Shown: in pieces, positions 3,451 through 41,854 of the stretch
Layout: every line of letters begins with the position of its first letter
Numbering within the stretch: the first letter of the stretch is position 1
Assembly: GCA_949493535.1 (NCBI GenBank)
Contig: CASZWJ010000008.1
Location: 345-64,344 of the forward strand
Direction of reading: 5' to 3'
DNA from: an uncultured Alphaproteobacteria bacterium
Lineage (GTDB): Bacteria > Pseudomonadota > Alphaproteobacteria > RF32 > CAG-239
Length of the DNA: 64,000 nt
The notes under the pieces: generated by a model
Told to the model about the DNA's origin: nothing
Databases searched by the model: none
What the model saw: only the letters and a program-made list of their open reading frames with translations
Made by a program: the position numbers and the translations under genes

Positions 3451-4626
3451 TTAATCCTTTATAATCTCGTTAATTAAAAACTTTTTAACCCATTTCAAGT
3501 CGCTCATCGGCAGTTTTTTGCCGAAGATAATGGTTTTGTCGTCGGAGATAATTGTCAAAAAACTGCGTTCTGTTGCCGGATTGACCGTAACGATAACCGC
3601 TTTGATGTCTTTTTTCATAATCTCGTCATGCTTGGTCTGGAAAAGCATGTATTTATGGGTGTTGACAATCTTGTCTTTCTTTATCACCAGTTTGTCTTTT
3701 CTGAACAATATGAAAATGGCGGCAACGGAGCACAAACTGCCGATACCGTAGAAAAGCCATAAAAATGTTGTTGAAAAGCCTGATATGTTAAAGCTGACGA
3801 TAAATCCGACCAAAGCAAATATAAAGATGAAAAGCCAAGCCAGAATATTATAAGCGTCCCAAACGATTTTGCGCGATTTGACAACCGTTTTAAGCGGGCC
3901 TTTGTTAAGGCCTATGCGCGAAGAGTGTTTGCTGTTTTCGTTGAACTTGTTTTTTAAATCCAAAATCTCGGACATTTCGCGAAGCGTTTTGCCCAAATCT
4001 TCGGCCTCGCGTTTAACCATGCCTTCGTCTGTGTACGTCAATGTCGGCAGATTCAGCTTTTTGGCATAGTCTTCCCAGATTTTTCTGATGTTCTTGCCTG
4101 ACGTCGAAATATATAACGGAACAATCTTTTCGGGTTTTTTGTGATGAAGCTCAATGATGTATCTGTTTTTGGTCATGAAGCCCCATTGGTAGAACTCTAT
4201 TCTCAGCATGACGCCGGCATAGTTTTTGAGGTCTTCGCGAATACTGGCTTTTTTGCCGAAAGCCGGACGGTTTACCATGGTAATGTTCTGCCCGTCAAAA
4301 AAGATTTTTTTGTAACGGATATGCGAAAACAAAAGGGATAAGACTATTCCCAGTCCCAAAACCATAATCGTAACGTCAAAAAACGTTGCGCTCATGAAAG
4401 GCGTAAACGTCATGGACGTATTGTCTTTAGCCAGTTTGTCAAAAATGCTGTCGTGATTTTTCAGCCCGTTCAGCAGTTCAAACAGACCCAGAGCAAAAAG
4501 CGCGGCACCGAGAATAATTCCCGGCAGCAGAATTTTAAGGTTCATCCGGTCGGATTCTTTTGCCGGCAGCCTGTCGATATTCAGTTTAAAGTTTTGGCTG
4601 AAATGCTTGGGAATTTTTCTGTTCAT
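3451..4626 (-). CDS. Membrane protein of unknown function with an internal duplication, 2 x (two TM helices + PH-like soluble module)
   Basis: 391-aa ORF. There are two hydrophobic pairs (residues ~30-100 and ~260-310), each followed by a ~90-aa beta-rich module. The start could instead be the internal MNLKILLPG. Confidence 0.6.
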   Translation of the reverse strand: MNRKIPKHFSQNFKLNIDRLPAKESDRMNLKILLPGIILGAALFALGLFELLNGLKNHDSIFDKLAKDNTSMTFTPFMSATFFDVTIMVLGLGIVLSLLFSHIRYKKIFFDGQNITMVNRPAFGKKASIREDLKNYAGVMLRIEFYQWGFMTKNRYIIELHHKKPEKIVPLYISTSGKNIRKIWEDYAKKLNLPTLTYTDEGMVKREAEDLGKTLREMSEILDLKNKFNENSKHSSRIGLNKGPLKTVVKSRKIVWDAYNILAWLFIFIFALVGFIVSFNISGFSTTFLWLFYGIGSLCSVAAIFILFRKDKLVIKKDKIVNTHKYMLFQTKHDEIMKKDIKAVIVTVNPATERSFLTIISDDKTIIFGKKLPMSDLKWVKKFLINEIIKD

Positions 4627-4800
4627 ATTAATAATCCTTCTGTATATTTGCAGCGGAAAAGATATTGCCTGAAGAAATACTATAATATTTTTTTCAAATA
4701 ATCATCAATTTTTTATAAAATTAATTCATGCTTTAATTTATTTTAACAATATAGATATAATCTGTGCGGAGAATTAATTAAATATGAAGGATCATATATA

Positions 4801-6561
4801 ATGGGAACCATCAGTATTTTTAACCAGACTTCAAACGTGGTCTTTACCCTTTTGTCATTGTTTTTGCTGTTTTGCGCCAGCATATATGCTTCTAAGGGAA
4901 CCAAGCTCGGAAAAGGTATTTGGCTGCTGTATTGGGGATTGGTGTTGGAGTTTGTCACAATATATATCGGCAAACATTCAAGTGATATTTTCAGCCATGG
5001 CGGCGGTATCGAGGGCTGGGTTTTCGTTGAGTTGCTGCTGAACCTGATTTCCATGATTCTTTTGGCAATGGCAGCCTCGCAAATTCTGGTAAACGGTGTT
5101 CCTGATTTGCCTGTTATCGGCGGTTTTGGCGCTTTGGGCCTGGTTGCCATAATTTATTTTCTGTTCATATCTCCTGATGGCGAAATGGTTTCAAACATGC
5201 GCCAGATATTCCCTCTGACGGGGTTTGCCTATATCTCCGTAAGCTTTTTGTCTCAATGGCGCAACAAACATCACGGCGGCTTTGTTTTTGCGGGTATTGT
5301 TTCGCTCTCGGTTGCTTTCGTCATGGTCTTAAAATTGTTCGGCAATGAATATTTTCTGATGTCTGCGTGGTATGTTCCTGCTTGCACATATGTCTTGCTC
5401 AGCATAGCCTTAATTATGATGAAAGGCGATTTTTATGCCAAAAAGCTTGACGAAAGCCAATTGGAAATAGAAAGATATAACAAGCGTATAGAAGAAATTA
5501 TCAAATCGTCGCCTTTCCCGATTATCATTTCCCGTTTGAGCGATGACCGTATCATTTTGGCGAATAACAATGCCATTAAGCTCTTTGGCATTCGTCAGGA
5601 AGAATTGGAACGTTACCGCTTAAAAGATTTCTTCGCCGATTCTGAAAACCGCCGTTTGTTAAATGAGCGGTTGGAACAGGAACGCGAAGTTCAGGATTTT
5701 GAAGTTTTGGTCACAACCCCGAGCAGCAATACGCCTTTCTGGCTTCTGACTTCGGCCAATGTTATCGATTATAACTATGATGTTGCGCTTTATGCCGCTT
5801 TTCAGGATATTACATCGCGCAAAAACCGCGAAGTTTTGTTGAAAAATCAGGCAATCCGCGATCCTCTGACTTCATTGTTTAACCGCCGTTATTTTGAAGA
5901 TGAGGTATATAAGCGCATTTTGGAATCTAAAACGGCAAACGAACCGTTCAGCGTGTTGATGATTGATGCCGACCATTTCAAAAACGTTAACGATACTTAC
6001 GGACACAAAACCGGTGATAAAGTGTTGATTGAGTTGGCTTCGACCTGTGAACGCGCGTTGCGTGACGTTGATATTGTCGCCCGTTACGGCGGTGAAGAAT
6101 TTGTTATCTTTTTAGCCGGCGTCAATGCTCAAAAAGGCAAAACCGTTGCTGACCGCCTGCGCGAGACAATCTCAGAAATTGTTGTTCACTCCGATGAAGG
6201 GGATGAGGTTCGTTTTACGGTCAGTATCGGCGTTTCTTCCAATGAGATTTCCGATAATATAGACACTCTGATTAAAGCTGCGGACGAAGCTTTGTATAAA
6301 GCCAAGGAAACCGGACGCAACCGTGTTGTCGTCTTTAATAAAGAAGATATGGAAGCCTTTGACAACAGGGAAACTCAGGAACGGATAAAAAATGAGGCCA
6401 ATAACCGGCATCCGATTTTTGATAAAGAAGAAAATGAAGAAATTTCGCTGCTGGACGGTATCGAAGCGCAGCATATCCAGAGCGATACGCCGAAAATAGA
6501 AGACGGCGGTTCGGATGAATCCGGCTTGCTGCTTGGCGTTGACGAAGAAGACTTGAAATAG
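4801..6561 (+). CDS. Membrane-bound PAS/GGDEF diguanylate cyclase
   Basis: N-terminal multi-TM domain and a PAS-like segment. GGDEF domain with an active-site RYGGEEF and an RxxD I-site (RDVD) five residues upstream. Acidic C-terminal tail. Confidence 0.85.
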   Translation: MGTISIFNQTSNVVFTLLSLFLLFCASIYASKGTKLGKGIWLLYWGLVLEFVTIYIGKHSSDIFSHGGGIEGWVFVELLLNLISMILLAMAASQILVNGVPDLPVIGGFGALGLVAIIYFLFISPDGEMVSNMRQIFPLTGFAYISVSFLSQWRNKHHGGFVFAGIVSLSVAFVMVLKLFGNEYFLMSAWYVPACTYVLLSIALIMMKGDFYAKKLDESQLEIERYNKRIEEIIKSSPFPIIISRLSDDRIILANNNAIKLFGIRQEELERYRLKDFFADSENRRLLNERLEQEREVQDFEVLVTTPSSNTPFWLLTSANVIDYNYDVALYAAFQDITSRKNREVLLKNQAIRDPLTSLFNRRYFEDEVYKRILESKTANEPFSVLMIDADHFKNVNDTYGHKTGDKVLIELASTCERALRDVDIVARYGGEEFVIFLAGVNAQKGKTVADRLRETISEIVVHSDEGDEVRFTVSIGVSSNEISDNIDTLIKAADEALYKAKETGRNRVVVFNKEDMEAFDNRETQERIKNEANNRHPIFDKEENEEISLLDGIEAQHIQSDTPKIEDGGSDESGLLLGVDEEDLK

Positions 6562-35624: not shown

Positions 35625-36875
35625 TTAAGCTTTTTTCAAAAGCCCGTGTTTTTTCTTTCCTTGAGAAAGTTTAACGGAACCGTCTTTGAAATCATTGTCG
35701 CTTATGATATAATTTTCATCGCTGACGGTAACATCATTTAGTTTCAGGCCGCCTTGTTTTATCAGTCTGCGGGCTTCGCCTTTGCTGGCAACAAAGCCGA
35801 TTTGCAAAAAGGCGTCCAATACGCCGATGCCGGCATTTCCCTGAATGCTGGGCAGTTCGCCGCCGGCAAACCCTTGTTCGAAAACTTTGACGGCTGTTTC
35901 TTGCGCGGCTGCGGCTTCTGCTTCGCCGCGGCAGATTTTGGTTGCCTCAAATGCCAGAATTTTCTTGGCTTCGTTAATTTCCTGATCTTTCAAAGCTTCC
36001 AAACGGCGGATTTCGTCAATCGGCAAATCCGTATAAATGCGCAGGCATTTTCCGACTTCCGCATCGCCGATGTTGCGGAAGTATTGGTAATAGTCATAAG
36101 CTGAAAGCTTCTCATCGTTAATCCAAACGGCGTTGCCCTCGGATTTGCCCATTTTCTTGCCGTTAGAATCTGTAATAATCGGACTTGTGAAACCGAAAAG
36201 CTCAACGTCATATTTGCGGCGTCCGAGTTCGGTTCCGGAGGTAATATTACCCCATTGGTCTGAACCGGCAATTTGCGCGCGGCAGCCATACTGCTGATAA
36301 AGTTCGCAGAAGTCATATCCCTGCAACAGCATATAGTTAAACTCCAGAAAAGACATCGGTTGCTCGCGTTCCAGACGAGATTTGACACTGTCCATCGTCA
36401 GCATGCGGTTCACCGAATAATAAGTGCCGATGTCGCGCAGGAAAGAAAGATAATTAATATCTTTAAACCAATCCCAGTTATCAACCATAACGGCATCATT
36501 TTTACCGTTGCCGAATTTCAAAAACTTGCTGAAAGATTTTTTCAAGCCTTCAATATTGTGAACCAGAGTTTCTTCGCTCAGGAACGGGCGGAGTTTGTCT
36601 TTGCCTGAAGGGTCGCCGATGCGTGCCGTTGCGCCGCCGACGAGTGTCAGCGGTTTATGTCCGCATTTTTGAAACCAACGCATCATCATTAATGGCACAA
36701 TATGCCCGACATGCAGGCTGTCGCCGGTCGGATCCGAACCCAGATAACCAACGGCCGGCGTACCGGTTCTTTCACATTCGGCCAAATAGTCGTCAAAGCC
36801 GCTTTCGTTTGTGCATTGATTGTAAAAGCCGCGTTCAGCCATCAGGTTCATAAATTGCGATTTAAATTGTGTCAT
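35625..36875 (-). CDS. tyrS: Tyrosyl-tRNA synthetase
   Basis: HIGH-type motif (SLHVGH), KMSKS-type motif (KKMGKSEG), and a C-terminal S4-like domain. Confidence 0.95.
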   Translation of the reverse strand: MTQFKSQFMNLMAERGFYNQCTNESGFDDYLAECERTGTPAVGYLGSDPTGDSLHVGHIVPLMMMRWFQKCGHKPLTLVGGATARIGDPSGKDKLRPFLSEETLVHNIEGLKKSFSKFLKFGNGKNDAVMVDNWDWFKDINYLSFLRDIGTYYSVNRMLTMDSVKSRLEREQPMSFLEFNYMLLQGYDFCELYQQYGCRAQIAGSDQWGNITSGTELGRRKYDVELFGFTSPIITDSNGKKMGKSEGNAVWINDEKLSAYDYYQYFRNIGDAEVGKCLRIYTDLPIDEIRRLEALKDQEINEAKKILAFEATKICRGEAEAAAAQETAVKVFEQGFAGGELPSIQGNAGIGVLDAFLQIGFVASKGEARRLIKQGGLKLNDVTVSDENYIISDNDFKDGSVKLSQGKKKHGLLKKA

Positions 36876-36950: not shown

Positions 36951-38060
36951 ATGGATATAATAAAAAAGATAAAGGCATTGGGATTGATGAGCGGCTCGTC
37001 TCTGGATGGGATATCCGCCGCGGTTATTACAACCGACGGGGTCGATGTTTATGACGTCGGCCGGACGATAAACGTGCCTTATGACGACGATATCCGTGAA
37101 CGGCTGCATGCTTTAATCGGCAAGAAGCCCGAAACGCCGGAACTGGAAGACAAGCTTAAAGCCCTTGAGGCTGATTTGACCAAAGCGCATGCCGAAGTTG
37201 CGCTTGACGTTATCGACTATACCGGAGAAAAAGTCGATGTAATCGGTTTTCATGGGCATACGATGCTTCATGATCCGAAAAATCATTATTCTTATCAGCT
37301 CGGCGACGGGCAAATGCTGGCAAACATAACGCAGACAAAGGTCGTCAATCGTTTTTGCAATGCCGACATTTTAGCCGGCGGGCAGGGCGCACCTTTGGTT
37401 TCGTCTTATTATGCGGCTTTGGTTGATACTTTTGAAAAGCCTGTGGCTGTTGTCAATATCGGCGGTATCTCCGATTTGACCTGGATTGGCGATAATGGCG
37501 AGTTGGTTGCTTTTGATGTCGGTCCCGGAAATGCGCCGGTGAATGACTGGGTGCGCCGCCATGCTGCCATGCAAATGGATTATGACGGTAAATTGGCCGT
37601 AACGGGAAATGTAAACGGTAAGGTATTGGCAAACTTGATGCGCCACAAGTTTTTTGCCCAAGTGCCGCCGAAATCAATCGACCGCGATATTTTCAAAGAC
37701 AAGCTTGAGCATCTTGAAGGCTTGAGCTTAGAAGACGGTGCGGCGACTGCGACTGCGTTTATTGCCGAAGCGGTGGCTTATTCCGTGGCTTTGTATGTGC
37801 CTAAGCGTCCCAAACAGATAATTGTCTGCGGCGGCGGTGCCAAAAATCCGACTTTAGTGCGCTTTCTGCGCCAAAAATTGGAAGGGATAGAAGTTCTGAC
37901 GTCCGGCCAGCTGGGCTGGCGGCCGGATACTCTGGAAGCGGAGGCTTTTGCTTTTCTGGCGGCAAGAAGATTATACGGCTTGCCTATTTCCTTTCCGTCG
38001 ACGACCGGTGTCAGGGAGCCGATTATCGGCGGCGAAATTAATATTCCGCAAGATTTCTAA
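36951..38060 (+). CDS. anmK: Anhydro-N-acetylmuramic acid kinase
   Basis: GLMSGSSLDGIS N-terminal motif and an ASKHA-fold pattern; 369 aa. Confidence 0.9.
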   Translation: MDIIKKIKALGLMSGSSLDGISAAVITTDGVDVYDVGRTINVPYDDDIRERLHALIGKKPETPELEDKLKALEADLTKAHAEVALDVIDYTGEKVDVIGFHGHTMLHDPKNHYSYQLGDGQMLANITQTKVVNRFCNADILAGGQGAPLVSSYYAALVDTFEKPVAVVNIGGISDLTWIGDNGELVAFDVGPGNAPVNDWVRRHAAMQMDYDGKLAVTGNVNGKVLANLMRHKFFAQVPPKSIDRDIFKDKLEHLEGLSLEDGAATATAFIAEAVAYSVALYVPKRPKQIIVCGGGAKNPTLVRFLRQKLEGIEVLTSGQLGWRPDTLEAEAFAFLAARRLYGLPISFPSTTGVREPIIGGEINIPQDF

Positions 38061-38067
38061 AAAAATA

Positions 38068-38095
38068 TTGACAAAAATAATAAAAGTGCTATTTA
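38068..38095 (+). promoter_or_regulatory. Strong sigma70-like promoter upstream of the tRNA-like gene
   Basis: TTGACA (38068-38073), a 16-nt spacer, then TATTTA. Confidence 0.5.
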
Positions 38096-38403
38096 AGAAC
38101 GCGTTTTAATATTTTTTTGGTTTAAGCCTTTGTTTAATGGTTAATGAAAATCCATTTTTTTTATATATCAAAAAAGGGGAGAGATGTGGTTCGCGTTCGT
38201 TCTTTTCCATTCCATAGCTGAAATTGTAATACATAATTGAATGTGTGCTCTTTTCTGCCCTTTTTTATTTGCTTGGAAATTATATGGTTTAGAAATGCCA
38301 TTTTTTTATAATAAAAGTGTTTTATTAACCCTGTAATCCGACCGGCAGAGTTACGCTTGACGCCTCTGTTTTTCAGACTGCGTTAATGCACTGCCGGTTA
38401 CAT

Positions 38404-38475
38404 CCGTATTTAGCTTAGTGGTTAGAGCGTCTGAGTGATCGTCAGAAGGCATCGGTTCGAATCCGGTAATACAGA
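38404..38475 (+). tRNA. Non-canonical tRNA-like gene, anticodon GAU (Ile)
   Basis: A 72-nt cloverleaf can be drawn. D arm GCTT/GAGC with a GG loop; anticodon stem TCTGA/TCAGA; loop GTGATCG; perfect T arm ATCGG-TTCGAAT-CCGGT; discriminator A. Deviations are C1-G72, a C2.A71 mismatch, G32, C37, G38, a 4-nt variable loop and no encoded CCA. Confidence 0.55.
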
Positions 38476-38500
38476 CAAAATCGAATTTTTCTTACTAGCC

Positions 38501-38537
38501 AAAAAGAGGTTCTCTGTGAAGAGCGCCTCTTTTTTTT
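38501..38537 (+). terminator. Rho-independent terminator after the tRNA-like gene
   Basis: AGAGG-tt-CTCT-gtga-AGAG-cg-CCTCT followed by T8. Confidence 0.8.
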
Positions 38538-38740
38538 GTGGATTTATAATTGACTCCGCGGTTTTCCTGTATTAAAGTGAGCGCAGTTTTAATCAATTTT
38601 GCTTAAAAGAATAAGAAAAAAGATGCGCAATTTTTACATATATTCCGTTCTCATCAATATTATCCCTTAGGGGATTGCATCTTTTCTATACATAAATTTT
38701 CCAATTCAATATCAAAAACAATAAACTAGGGTATTTGTAC

Positions 38741-41700
38741 ATGACAAAATACTATGCTGACGTTAAGGCTAAGCCTGACTTTGTCGAAGTCGAAAAAGAG
38801 ATTCTCAAATTTTGGGAAGACAACAATACTTTTGAAAAATCCGTTCATAACCGCGACGGTGCGGCCGAATTTGTTTTTTATGACGGACCTCCGTTTGCCA
38901 ACGGCACGCCGCACTACGGACATATTATGGTTTCTTATGTCAAAGACGTGGTTGCCCGCTATCAGACGATGAACGGCAAAAAGGTCGAGCGCCGTTTGGG
39001 ATGGGACTGCCACGGTCTGCCGGCCGAAATGTCTGCCGAAAAGCAATTGGGCGTTTCCGGACGCAAGCAGATTGAAGAATTCGGCGTTGAAAAATTTAAT
39101 GATTTCTGCCGTTCGGACGTTTTGAAATATTCGGGAATTTGGGTCGATATGTTCAAACGCATCGGCCGCTGGGTGGATTTCAACCATGATTACAAAACAA
39201 TGGATTTGTCTTTCATGGAAAGCATTATCAATAACTTCAAACAGCTTTATGAAAAAGGGCTGGTTTATGAAGATTACCGCGTATTGCCTTATTCTTGGGC
39301 TGCTGAAACGCCGTTGTCCAACTTTGAGGTTAACCAGGGCTATCAGGACAAGACGGATAATGCCATAACGGTAATGTTCAAGCTCGAAAACGGCATGAAT
39401 GTTTTGGTTTGGACGACAACTCCGTGGACTTTGCCGTCAAACCTGATGCTGGCCGTCGGCAATGAAATCGATTATGCCGTAATGGAAGAAAACGGCGAGA
39501 AATATTTGCTGGCTCAGGCTCTGCTCGGACGATACAAAAAACAGCTGGAACACGCAACGCAGGTCGGCACAATCAAAGGTAAAGATTTGGTCGGCATGAG
39601 CTATGAACCGATGTTCCCTTATTTCAAAGAGTTGAAAGAAAAAGGCGCATTCAGAGTATTAAGCGGCGAGTTCGTTTCAACCGAAGACGGTACCGGCGTT
39701 GTTCATATCGCCCCGGGTTTCGGTCAGGACGACTTTGATGCCTGCCGTGCGTATGATGAAAACTTTCCTGTTGTTTGTCCGGTTGACGAAGCCGGCAAGT
39801 TTACGGCGGAAGTTCCTGATTATCAGGGCAAACAGGTTTTTGAAGTTAATGATTCCGTCATGCAATGGCTGAAAGAGAATGGTCTGCTGGTAAAAAAAGA
39901 GCAATATACCCACTCTTATCCTTTCTGCTGGAGAACGGATACGCCGTTGATTTACAAGGCAATGTCTTCTTGGTTTGTCAAAGTAACCGATTTCCGCGAT
40001 GAAATGGTGAAGAATAACCAGCAGATTAATTGGGTTCCTGATCATATTAAAGACGGACGCTTCGGCAAATGGCTGGAAGGCGCGCGCGATTGGTCTATTT
40101 CCCGCAACCGTTTCTGGGGAACGCCGATTCCGGTTTGGAAATCGGATAATCCGAAATTCCCGCGTGTGGATGTTTTCGGTTCCGTTGCCGAGATTAAGGA
40201 AAAAACCGGTATTGAGGTTACCAACCTGCATAAGCCTTATATTGACAATGTGGTTTATCCGAACCCCGACGATCCGTCAGGACAAACAATGATGCGCCGT
40301 GTCAGCGATGTTTTTGACTGTTGGTTTGAATCAGGTTCAATGCCTTATGCCCAAGTGCATTATCCGTTTGACAACAAAGAATGGTTTGAAAACCATTTTC
40401 CGGCAGACTTTATCGTTGAGGCAATGGATCAGACCCGCGGGTGGTTCTATACCTTGACGGTTTTGTCAACGGCATTGCATAACCGTCCGGCTTTCAAAAA
40501 CTGCATCTGCACCGGTCTGCTGATGGCCGAGGGCGGGCAGAAACTCTCCAAACGTTTGAAAAACTATCCGGACCCGAATGAAGTTTTGGATACAATCGGT
40601 TCCGATGTTTTGCGCTGGTTCTTGGTTTCTTCTCCGGTTTTAAAAGGCGGGAATCTGGCTGTTGATAAAGAGGGTAAGGAAATCTCCAAAGCCGCCCGCG
40701 TGGCATTGATTCCGTTGTGGAATGCTTTTTATTTCTTCACGCTTTATGCCAATGCCGAAGGTTACAAAGCTAAAGAAATATCTTCTTCATCGGAAGCGAT
40801 TGACAATTACATTTTGTCAAAGCTCAAACGCTTGAGCCAAATTGTAAAACAGGGAATGGATACCTATGATGTCGCCATGGCAACCAATGAAACGGCTGCT
40901 TTTATGGAAGTTCTCAACAACTGGTATATCCGCCGTACCCGCGACCGTTTCTGGGAAGGTGACAAACAGGCCTTTGACGTGCTCTACACGGTTTTGGTCA
41001 ACTTGAGCAAAATTTTGGCACCCTTAATGCCGTTTGTTTCAGAATATGTTTTCAAAACGCTGACCGGTGAAGAATCCGTCCATTTGACAGATTATCCGAT
41101 GCTGGAGCAAATTAAGCTGGATGAAAAACTGGTTTCTGAAATGGACTTTTTGCAGGATTTATGTTCTGCCGGCAAGTTTATCCGCGAAGAAAAGAATCTG
41201 CGCAACCGCCTGCCGTTGCAAAGCCTGACCGTAGTCGGAGATAATCTCGGCTTTATCGGCACGCAGTATCAGGAAATTATCAAAGACGAACTGAATGTCA
41301 AAGAAGTCAAACTTGATAATAATCTGGCGGCCTATGCAGATAAGACGGTTTATCTTTATACTCCGCTGCTGGGCAAAGCTTTGGGTAAAGATATGGGGCC
41401 GGTTATGGGCGCTTACAAACAAGGCAAATGGGAACTCAATGCCGACGGTACTTTGAGTATTGCCGGTCAGAATTTGACAAAAGATCTGTTTGAAGTTCGT
41501 CTGAATATGAAAGACGGTGTTGCCGGTCAGGCCTTTGCCGATAATAAAGCCGTTGTGACGCTTGATACCAATGTGACCGATGATTTGCGCCGCGAAGGCA
41601 TGGCGCGCGATTTTGTCCGCTTGGTTCAGCAGCTGCGCAAAGATAAAGACTTTAATATTTCTGACCGTATTGAGCTTTGCTACTCAACAAACAATGCCGA

Positions 41701-41854
41701 ATTGGCTCAGGCTCTGTCCGACAACAAAGCCTATGTTGCCGAGCAGGTGCTGGCTGTTAAGGTAAACAACAGCTGTGCTGAGGGAACATCCGCCGATATA
41801 GACGGTGCCGAAATTATGTTCAATGCCAAAGTCAGCGACATAAAAGTAGCTTAA
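38741..41854 (+). CDS. ileS: Isoleucyl-tRNA synthetase, type 2 (eukaryote-like form)
   Basis: FYDGPPFANGTPHYGH (HIGH) and KLSKR (KMSKS); ~1037 aa with no C-terminal zinc-finger extension. ATG at 38741; the ORF-track start is a TTG 6 nt upstream. Confidence 0.95.
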   Translation: MTKYYADVKAKPDFVEVEKEILKFWEDNNTFEKSVHNRDGAAEFVFYDGPPFANGTPHYGHIMVSYVKDVVARYQTMNGKKVERRLGWDCHGLPAEMSAEKQLGVSGRKQIEEFGVEKFNDFCRSDVLKYSGIWVDMFKRIGRWVDFNHDYKTMDLSFMESIINNFKQLYEKGLVYEDYRVLPYSWAAETPLSNFEVNQGYQDKTDNAITVMFKLENGMNVLVWTTTPWTLPSNLMLAVGNEIDYAVMEENGEKYLLAQALLGRYKKQLEHATQVGTIKGKDLVGMSYEPMFPYFKELKEKGAFRVLSGEFVSTEDGTGVVHIAPGFGQDDFDACRAYDENFPVVCPVDEAGKFTAEVPDYQGKQVFEVNDSVMQWLKENGLLVKKEQYTHSYPFCWRTDTPLIYKAMSSWFVKVTDFRDEMVKNNQQINWVPDHIKDGRFGKWLEGARDWSISRNRFWGTPIPVWKSDNPKFPRVDVFGSVAEIKEKTGIEVTNLHKPYIDNVVYPNPDDPSGQTMMRRVSDVFDCWFESGSMPYAQVHYPFDNKEWFENHFPADFIVEAMDQTRGWFYTLTVLSTALHNRPAFKNCICTGLLMAEGGQKLSKRLKNYPDPNEVLDTIGSDVLRWFLVSSPVLKGGNLAVDKEGKEISKAARVALIPLWNAFYFFTLYANAEGYKAKEISSSSEAIDNYILSKLKRLSQIVKQGMDTYDVAMATNETAAFMEVLNNWYIRRTRDRFWEGDKQAFDVLYTVLVNLSKILAPLMPFVSEYVFKTLTGEESVHLTDYPMLEQIKLDEKLVSEMDFLQDLCSAGKFIREEKNLRNRLPLQSLTVVGDNLGFIGTQYQEIIKDELNVKEVKLDNNLAAYADKTVYLYTPLLGKALGKDMGPVMGAYKQGKWELNADGTLSIAGQNLTKDLFEVRLNMKDGVAGQAFADNKAVVTLDTNVTDDLRREGMARDFVRLVQQLRKDKDFNISDRIELCYSTNNAELAQALSDNKAYVAEQVLAVKVNNSCAEGTSADIDGAEIMFNAKVSDIKVA

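Follow-up and report, generated by a model that had tools for sequence, protein, structure and literature searches.

We have analyzed a stretch of 64,000 nucleotides from an uncultured alphaproteobacterium (assembly GCA_949493535.1, contig CASZWJ010000008.1, positions 345 to 64,344 of the forward strand), hereafter called the window, in which the spacer between the genes anmK and ileS contains a tRNA-like gene with an isoleucine anticodon, GAU. A 'tRNA-Ile' standing beside the gene of isoleucyl-tRNA synthetase (IleRS) looks like a regulatory mimic, a tempting misreading that our results correct, because the element (38404-38476, forward strand) is neither a tRNA-Ile nor an IleRS sensor. The explanation that we favor, with some reserve, is that it forms a tRNA-like module without a decoding role, within a noncoding unit that is young and confined to this lineage. 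Probably, either its shape is read by enzymes that process tRNAs or it contributes to the structure or stability of the RNA. This tRNA-like gene appears to occur in only a few gut alphaproteobacteria that are closely related to one another, and offers a clean example of a tRNA-derived RNA in which the fold seems to be selected while the anticodon drifts, thereby joining the few bacterial cases, such as tRNA-Other, in which tRNA shapes have been recruited for roles outside translation. The downstream ileS is most likely governed by a leader of its own, which is considered further below.

The cloverleaf spans 38404-38475 and reads, from 5' to 3', CCGTATT TA GCTT AGTGGTTA GAGC G TCTGA GTGATCG TCAGA AGGC ATCGG TTCGAAT CCGGT AATACAG A. 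ARAGORN labels 38404-38476 as tRNA-Ile(gat) and the Rfam tRNA model matches the element with 54.5 bits (gathering score 29), the sole non-standard pair being 2-71; the cloverleaf proposed in the initial annotation is confirmed. The anomalies listed there can all be read in the sequence as well. The A/U-rich acceptor stem starts with C1-G72 and has a C2.A71 mismatch, while the anticodon loop (GUGAUCG, that is G32-U33-G34A35U36-C37-G38) has the usual seven nucleotides and U33, whereas the purine at position 37 (A37/t6A) and the A38 expected of an elongator tRNA-Ile are absent, their places being taken by C37 and a G32/G38 combination. The variable loop, AGGC, has 4 nt, and A73 is followed by CAAAAT, so that the terminal CCA is not encoded. 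The elbow, by comparison, is as regular as previously described, with GG in the D-loop and a T-loop TTCGAAT closed by G53-C61, and the nucleotides involved in tertiary contacts are all canonical (U8, A14, G15/C48, G18G19, G26/A44 and T54/A58). No other tRNA gene was found within the 64-kb window. The canonical Phe, Arg and Glu tRNA genes of the same clade (n=3) encode CCA and have G+C-rich stems, and the tRNA-like gene has neither feature. The element is identical in eight contigs of the same species; it is therefore fixed there, and these contigs are uninformative on constraint.

The ileS of the window has matches in 80 species-level genomes of uncultured gut Alphaproteobacteria, with amino-acid identities of 83-93%. 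A tRNA-like gene in the slot between anmK and ileS is found in 0 of these 80 related species when ARAGORN is run on 3 kb each side of ileS, the only calls being three ordinary tRNAs (Glu, Phe and Arg) that all lie elsewhere than in the slot. A canonical tRNA-Phe in locus L065 was considered as an occupant of the slot and rejected, since its gene context differs. A covariance model built from the element (R1) matched nothing in the loci of the 80 species except the ordinary tRNAs for Phe and Arg, and an Rfam scan of the 15 closest loci gave no tRNA match; R1 is a single-sequence model, and missed the copy of locus L095 described below owing to its insert, a copy that Rfam and ARAGORN detected. 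Nor did exact or degenerate DNA patterns drawn from the element, from its T-arm or from the adjacent hairpin match anything in genome, viral and metagenome collections; these scans included one of viral and metagenome contigs with the conserved T-arm pattern and one of viral contigs with an exact 27-mer across the anticodon arm.

Closer relatives were gathered via the 90% cluster of ileS and homologues of AnmK. Locus L093, with an ileS 92% identical to that of the window, has a homologue in the slot (1763-1833; 57 bits with R1 and 44 bits with the Rfam tRNA model), which shares C1-G72, A73, the 4-nt variable loop, the T-arm and the absence of CCA. Its anticodon loop is CUACUG, of 6 nt and without GAU, and it lies 480 nt past anmK and ~1170 nt ahead of ileS. 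Locus L095 (AnmK 89% identical) also has a tRNA-like gene in the slot (4610-4708; Rfam 57 bits, 21/21 pairs), with homologous flanks and ~1.1 kb before ileS; its acceptor stem has G1-C72 as a normal first pair, and an insert of ~30 nt in its anticodon loop folds into an extended arm. (ARAGORN labels L095:4610-4708 as tRNA-Stop(tta) with an intron; by its size, the insert is not a group I intron.) In both loci another transcription unit and a terminator lie between the element and ileS. In locus L097 (AnmK 94%), where the whole spacer is 78.6% identical to that of the window, the slot contains a heavily mutated 5' half of the tRNA-like gene, of which the 3' half is deleted, and this remnant is much more diverged than the flanking sequence. 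Finally, loci L100 to L104, at AnmK identities of 73-76%, have no tRNA-like gene.

The pattern of substitutions among the surviving copies points to constraint on the fold. Between the window and L093 as many as 14 of the 42 stem positions differ, and 20 of the 21 pairs form in each sequence, five pairs having changed on both sides while remaining paired (4-69, 6-67, 11-24, 28-42 and 52-62). The mismatch C2.A71 of the window is C-G in L093, in which one pair is lost. When 14 random stem substitutions were simulated, 20 or more pairs were kept in only 3 of 100,000 trials (P = 3e-5). The three copies together (window, L093 and L095) form 20, 20 and 21 of the 21 pairs, respectively, with stems that are 36-67% identical and unpaired positions that are 74-83% identical; for L095 against the other two copies, the corresponding values are 36-48% and 74-75%. 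The cloverleaf and its elbow therefore appear to be under selection, whereas the anticodon loop does not. Because the stems are maintained and the anticodon loop is free to vary, the GAU triplet of the window copy is best seen as incidental, and we infer from these alignments that the element is not used for decoding; whatever reads it has no need of the anticodon loop. Among the options raised in the initial annotation, a specialised or non-translational tRNA is the one that the evidence favors.

The tRNA-like gene forms the 3' part of a small, predicted noncoding unit in the anmK-ileS spacer. Immediately past the stop codon of anmK lies a predicted promoter that matches the consensus (38068-38095, forward strand), with a -35 element TTGACA (38068-38073), a 16-nt spacer and TGc plus TATTTA (38087-38095). 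The same promoter-like block is conserved in L097, L093, L095/L096, L099, L100 and L005, and occurs twice in L093. It is followed by a stretch of ~240 nt (38100-38340, forward strand) that alignment shows to be conserved, with the blocks AATCCATTTTTTT, GTAATACATAAT and TTTTCTGCCCTTTT. Small proteins encoded in 38100-38400 on either strand were considered and rejected, given that the open reading frames (ORFs) are frameshifted or stopped in L097, L093 and L095. Next comes a hairpin of 58 nt (ACCGGCAG...CTGCCGGT, 38341-38398, forward strand; -27.7 kcal/mol, z -5.4), directly 5' of the tRNA-like gene, which covaries among relatives: its basal pairs are AG/CT, GG/CC or AA/TT, the base is entirely different in L100, and the inner stem shows the compensatory change of TTGACGC/GCGTTAA into TTAATA/TATTAA. 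A model of this hairpin (R2) matches only the window, L097, L093 (twice), L095 (twice), L100 and L101, with weak matches in L102 and L103 and none in the 80 species loci. Downstream of the tRNA-like gene the unit ends with an intrinsic terminator (stem AAAAAGAGG..CCTCTTTTT followed by a T run, 38501-38537, forward strand), which folds at -18.4 kcal/mol (z -3.4), in agreement with the terminator initially called at this position, and is 94.6% identical to the terminator of the first unit in L095. Terminators of the same type precede the ileS promoter in L001, L005, L093, L095, L097 and L100. The unit has no Rfam family match, either in the window region at E<=10 or in the copies of the relatives.

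Two such promoter-to-terminator units stand in tandem in L093 (1315-2205 and 2217-2804) and L095 (4140-5047 and about 5050-5645), whereas a single unit is present in the window and in L097. The proximity of GAU to ileS follows from this difference, because the lineage of the window has one copy of the unit and its relatives have two in tandem. (The part from promoter to hairpin is located at 38068-38398 in the window, L093:1315-1749, L095:4140-4606, L097:1370-1707 and L100:4130-4461.) In the relatives that have two units the second has degenerated, and a stretch of it resembles the tRNA-like gene, with z 4.6 in L001 (L001:1-560). This stretch of L001, which lies by the terminator, was first entertained as a decayed orthologue of the element, an interpretation that was dropped because it is better described as a degenerate second copy of the unit. 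Since the unit is present at AnmK identities of 75-76%, where the tRNA-like gene is absent, the unit appears to be older than the tRNA-like gene that it contains. Metatranscriptome unitigs spanning 38268-38441 and 38350-38499 cross both borders of the tRNA-like gene at a sparse coverage of 2-4x, which is at best a weak sign of a longer transcript. (Sequencing runs that were first taken as RNA resembled DNA assemblies; the true metatranscriptomes are those at 2-4x.)

Several observations weigh against the reading of the element as a selected, non-decoding module. On its own, the window copy does not adopt the cloverleaf at minimum free energy and folds no more stably than shuffled sequences (z -0.41); the cause is a weak acceptor stem, which also carries a mismatch. 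The covariation, as presently seen in the alignments, rests on two or three sequences, of which the L095 copy might be a replacement instead of a descendant. At least one close lineage, that of L097, can do without the element, and the tRNA-like gene is absent at AnmK identities of 73-76% even though the hairpin is clear (L100, L101) or weak (L102, L103) there. Moreover, the metatranscriptome coverage is sparse, no higher than that of the neighboring genes, and could include DNA.

The main rival is that the element is a neutral, decaying tRNA pseudogene, a redundant or acquired copy that erodes at its own pace in each lineage. Such a pseudogene would explain the restriction to three close lineages, the mutated 5' half in L097 and the absence from the 80 other species, together with the lack of a CCA that the real tRNAs of the clade encode, the C2.A71 mismatch in an A/U-rich acceptor stem, the fold that is no better than shuffled and the anticodon loops that are abnormal in all three copies. 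Neutral decay would not, on the other hand, be expected to produce compensatory double substitutions or to leave 20 of 21 pairs intact after 14 stem changes, nor to spare every nucleotide in tertiary contact. Furthermore, since the remnant in L097 is far more diverged than its flanks, a high neutral rate is suggested, which the window copy would have resisted. We therefore regard the pseudogene as an unlikely explanation, even if it is the strongest competitor: the decay suggested in the initial annotation holds for the sister lineage L097, but simple decay does not seem to describe the copy of the window.

Less probable still is the possibility that the element is a relic of mobile DNA, either a tRNA-derived attachment site or the cargo of an integrating element, without any role as RNA. 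The content of the spacer between anmK and ileS is indeed highly variable across loci, with a length from 0.64 to 2.7 kb, units are duplicated, a stretch resembling the tRNA-like gene lies by the terminator of L001, and tRNA genes are common targets of integration (PMC3399842). Against this possibility, the spacer of no locus contains an integrase or other mobile-element gene, and the repeats consist of whole promoter-to-terminator units instead of the att-like repeats of a tRNA 3' end. In addition, the scans of viral and metagenome contigs with the T-arm pattern and the 27-mer were empty, and the structural covariation points to constraint at the RNA level.

Returning to the non-decoding module that we favor, its expression and fate can be envisaged from the order of the parts. 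Transcription would start at the promoter (38068-38095) and proceed through the conserved region of ~240 nt, the hairpin (38341-38398) and the tRNA-like gene (38404-38476) to the terminator (38501-38537). In the resulting RNA, the tRNA shape would be recognised by enzymes that handle tRNAs, with cleavage by RNase P at the 5' side, trimming of the 3' end and addition of CCA. Such processing could free a stable tRNA-like small RNA and leave an upstream RNA that ends in the hairpin; alternatively, the tRNA shape could remain as a structural and stabilising module inside the larger RNA. We also consider, more tentatively, that promoter, hairpin and tRNA-like gene together may specify a hitherto undescribed small regulatory RNA, present in RF32-like alphaproteobacteria of the gut. 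The tRNA-shaped domain, whose anticodon arm evolves freely, would then be a functional mimic. A mimic of this kind might serve some tRNA-binding enzyme or toxin as decoy or substrate; alternatively, it might be a processing handle by which the upstream RNA acquires its 3' end. In the species of the window, it may have been co-opted beside the proposed Ile attenuator.

Among known systems, the nearest in manner is tRNA-Other of Bacillus cereus, a pseudo-tRNA within a larger regulatory RNA for which expression, extended transcripts and a phenotype have been shown (Rogers et al. 2012, PMC3399842). As in that case, we see a tRNA shape that is not used in translation, lies apparently inside a longer noncoding transcript, has a narrow distribution among lineages and can be proposed to derive from a recruited tRNA gene. 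The two differ in that they have no sequence relationship, that no genomic island flanks the element (its neighbors being anmK, ileS or the second copy of the unit), that the element is known here from its sequence, that its anticodon arm varies greatly among orthologues and that it is preceded by a covarying hairpin. It therefore resembles tRNA-Other in manner and is a member of no sequence family that we could find. The combination of conserved elbow and acceptor with an altered anticodon arm, together with possible processing by RNase P, is further reminiscent of tmRNA, of the Y RNA YrlA and of mascRNA on MALAT1, the latter being a tRNA-like signal for 3' processing. Unlike tmRNA and Y RNA, however, the 5' and 3' ends of the element close a normal acceptor stem, and it has neither a tag ORF nor a Ro-binding stem; ARAGORN finds no tmRNA, and the Rfam families of tmRNA and bacterial Y RNA have no match.

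The regulation of ileS appears to be a separate matter, with its own promoter and a leader containing a short Ile-rich ORF of ~15 codons. Sequence conservation, starting at the terminator and continuing downstream, extends to all relatives. A consensus scan predicts the ileS promoter at 38550-38578 (TTGACT, 17 nt, TAAAGT, forward strand), in a region, ATTGACTC...TGTATTAAA, that is conserved in relatives. Further downstream, the ORF encodes the peptide MRNFYIYSVLINIIP* (38623-38670, forward strand; 15 codons, 4 of them Ile), and is enclosed by a long stem, the 5' strand of which (AAAGATGC, 38619-38626, including the leader start codon) pairs with 38677-38684 in a 3' strand that continues into a T-rich tract (GCATCTTT, 38677-38687). 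Between them lies a hairpin, ATCCC-TTAG-GGGAT (38662-38675, forward strand), in which the 5' arm consists of the last Ile and Pro codons and the loop contains the TAG stop codon. The initial annotation correctly recognised the long stem and the hairpin, both of which are present and conserved, and overlooked the ORF between them, which is likely the regulator of ileS.

An ORF of the same kind precedes ileS in 86 of 86 loci examined, with 73 distinct peptides that have 14-16 codons in most cases. Ile accounts for 34.7% of the residues of these peptides versus 4.7% in four large proteins of the window, and all three Ile codons are used. The end of the peptide is always I-P-stop and in nearly all cases I-I-P-stop, L100 having L-I-P. 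Across 81 sequences the columns of the hairpin core are invariant, and the hairpin scores as terminator-like in the consensus scan; a T-rich tract follows on its 3' side in nearly all relatives. The long stem is not recovered by RNAalifold, because its 3' strand shifts position between species, and was evaluated instead by comparing cognate with non-cognate duplexes in 81 distinct leaders: the former have a mean of -10.1 kcal/mol and the latter of -7.0 kcal/mol (Mann-Whitney p = 4e-21), the region of the start codon pairing with a segment after the hairpin in every species.

Judging from these sequence features, the ileS leader is most likely an Ile-sensing attenuator of the leader-peptide kind. 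When charged tRNA-Ile is scarce, a ribosome would stall at the Ile codons, the leader structures would be blocked and read-through into ileS would follow. The stalled ribosome could prevent formation of the closed structure by covering either the start-proximal strand or the hairpin; since the final Ile codons lie within the 5' arm of the latter, the geometry implies that a ribosome stalled there would cover it. The direction of control, and the level at which it would operate (intrinsic termination, Rho or translation), are likewise deduced from this arrangement. Three points speak against the interpretation as an attenuator: the hairpin has just 5-6 bp and is weak by itself, RNAalifold recovers only this invariant hairpin from the 81 leaders and thus no alternative helix or classical antiterminator, and the position of the long stem with respect to the T-run varies between species.

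The proposed attenuator shares with those of trp, his, ilv and E. coli pheST (pheM), and with Caulobacter CCNA_03934 by description, a short ORF rich in cognate codons followed by a hairpin and a T-rich tract (38619-38687). For alphaproteobacteria there is a precedent in CCNA_03934 itself, annotated as 'ileS leader CDS' in Caulobacter on the basis of ribosome profiling (PMC4117421). Classical attenuators differ from the leader described here, which has a compact geometry, a stop codon in the loop of the hairpin, a near-invariant I-I-P and a stem that encloses the ORF and pairs with its start codon, and in which no 2:3 antiterminator pairing was found. The ileS leader would accordingly represent a new, compact variant of this kind, through which a whole clade of uncultured gut alphaproteobacteria may control its type-2 IleRS by an unusually compact Ile-rich leader peptide; it is relevant to the regulation of aminoacyl-tRNA synthetase genes outside model organisms.

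Two other devices associated with synthetase genes may be compared with the element and the leader. T-boxes are found upstream of ileS in Firmicutes, and translational T-boxes in Actinobacteria (PMC1262725). In common with them, the system proposed here would couple the expression of ileS to the charging state of tRNA-Ile. Unlike them, it has no T-box match (Rfam, neither at gathering score across the whole window nor at E<=10 in 37800-39000), the sensing would occur through the translating ribosome and the tRNA-like gene lies outside the leader. The thrS operator of E. coli, an anticodon-arm mimic bound by threonyl-tRNA synthetase, similarly places a tRNA-like shape near a synthetase gene, but lies inside the leader of the thrS mRNA, overlaps the ribosome-binding site and has a conserved anticodon-like loop, whereas the element of the window belongs to a distinct unit with its own terminator and shows no conservation of the loop.

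Two side observations concern the leader. The motif ATTCC inside the ORF (38642-38646 in the window) is conserved at the nucleotide level while its frame differs by species (Y-S, H-S or I-P), which suggests a role at the RNA level; base-pairing of the motif with the hairpin arm GGGAT is conceivable. Also, the ribosome-binding region of ileS, TTAGGGTAT (38728-38736), is closely similar to the leader hairpin in its loop and 3' arm, TTAGGGGAT (38667-38675), both being conserved across species.

The organization of the leader bears upon the suggestion that the element is a mimic of tRNA-Ile that binds IleRS and thereby regulates or reports on ileS. To its credit, the window copy has G34A35U36 and A73, is oriented as ileS and, as initially noted, lies ~265 nt upstream of it (to the ATG at 38741). 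Relatives break this linkage, an outcome that the initial annotation had named as grounds for refutation, with 0 of 80 species having the element near ileS, and GAU is not kept: the orthologues have no GAU and even lack a 7-nt loop, and their elements lie ~1.1-1.2 kb from ileS in a separate unit. Even in the window, the terminator (38501-38537) and a separate promoter intervene between the element and ileS, and the leader-peptide element is present in 86 of 86 ileS loci, nearly all without the tRNA-like gene. Several identity elements of tRNA-Ile are also missing. The E. coli identity set, reportedly given by Nureki et al. in 1994, is said to comprise G34, A35, U36, A37, A38, A73, C4-G69, U12-A23 and C29-G41. 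By these E. coli rules, from which those of a type-2 IleRS may differ, the element has G34, A35, U36, A73 and U12-A23, and lacks A37, A38, C4-G69 (being U4-A69) and C29-G41 (being U29-A41). The suggestion, originally among those advanced for the element, is hence very improbable.

Hardly credible, finally, is the reading of the element as a functional, though unusual, elongator tRNA-Ile(GAU) for the codons AUC and AUU, because the calls by ARAGORN and Rfam and the presence of U33 and GAU in a 7-nt loop are outweighed by the pyrimidine at 37, G32/G38, the weak and mismatched acceptor stem, the missing CCA, the inability of the orthologous genes to decode and the loss of the gene in the nearest relative L097 (the tRNA-Ile of those species must therefore be encoded elsewhere), and a scan for the C37 pattern in 185,579 species genomes yielded just 4 tRNA-Ile-like genes with TGATC in the loop, none of them related to or resembling the element. 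Two loci with this pattern, L091:329-404 and L092:7152-7228, are otherwise canonical tRNA-Ile(GAU) genes with the loop CTGATCA, hence C37 for A37; L091 derives from a metagenome-assembled genome of Ignavibacteriales, and the C37 of L091 and L092 may be real variation or an assembly error.

With regard to the genomic setting, the labelled sequencing runs that hold the window sequence are mouse-gut metagenomes, and no rRNA is found within the 64 kb. The local order of genes is tyrS (-), anmK (+), a spacer of ~680 nt and ileS (+), an order retained in contigs of the same species and in near relatives. The anmK gene (36951-38060, forward strand) encodes anhydro-N-acetylmuramic acid kinase (NCBIfam NF007141, 420 bits), and ileS (38741-41854, forward strand) a type-2, eukaryote-like IleRS (TIGR00392, 894 bits). 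The protein has the type-2 architecture of MupA/MupB, with full-length similarity to the models of both MupA and MupB that remains below their cut-offs. Its Pfam domains in the contig listing are PF00133, PF08264 and PF19302, and no zinc-finger C-terminal domain is among those listed.

The IleRS of locus L094 differs from that of the window in 12 of 1037 residues, and its leader (L094:1-654, peptide MMNNFLIHTIPSIIIP) is that of L027 and L031, whose ileS is only ~87% identical to that of the window. Such a mismatch between leader and ileS indicates either recombination at the 5' end of ileS or a chimeric assembly. Two aminoacyl-tRNA synthetase genes surround anmK, tyrS at 35625-36875 (-) and ileS at 38741-41854 (+), an arrangement that is kept in the near relatives examined.

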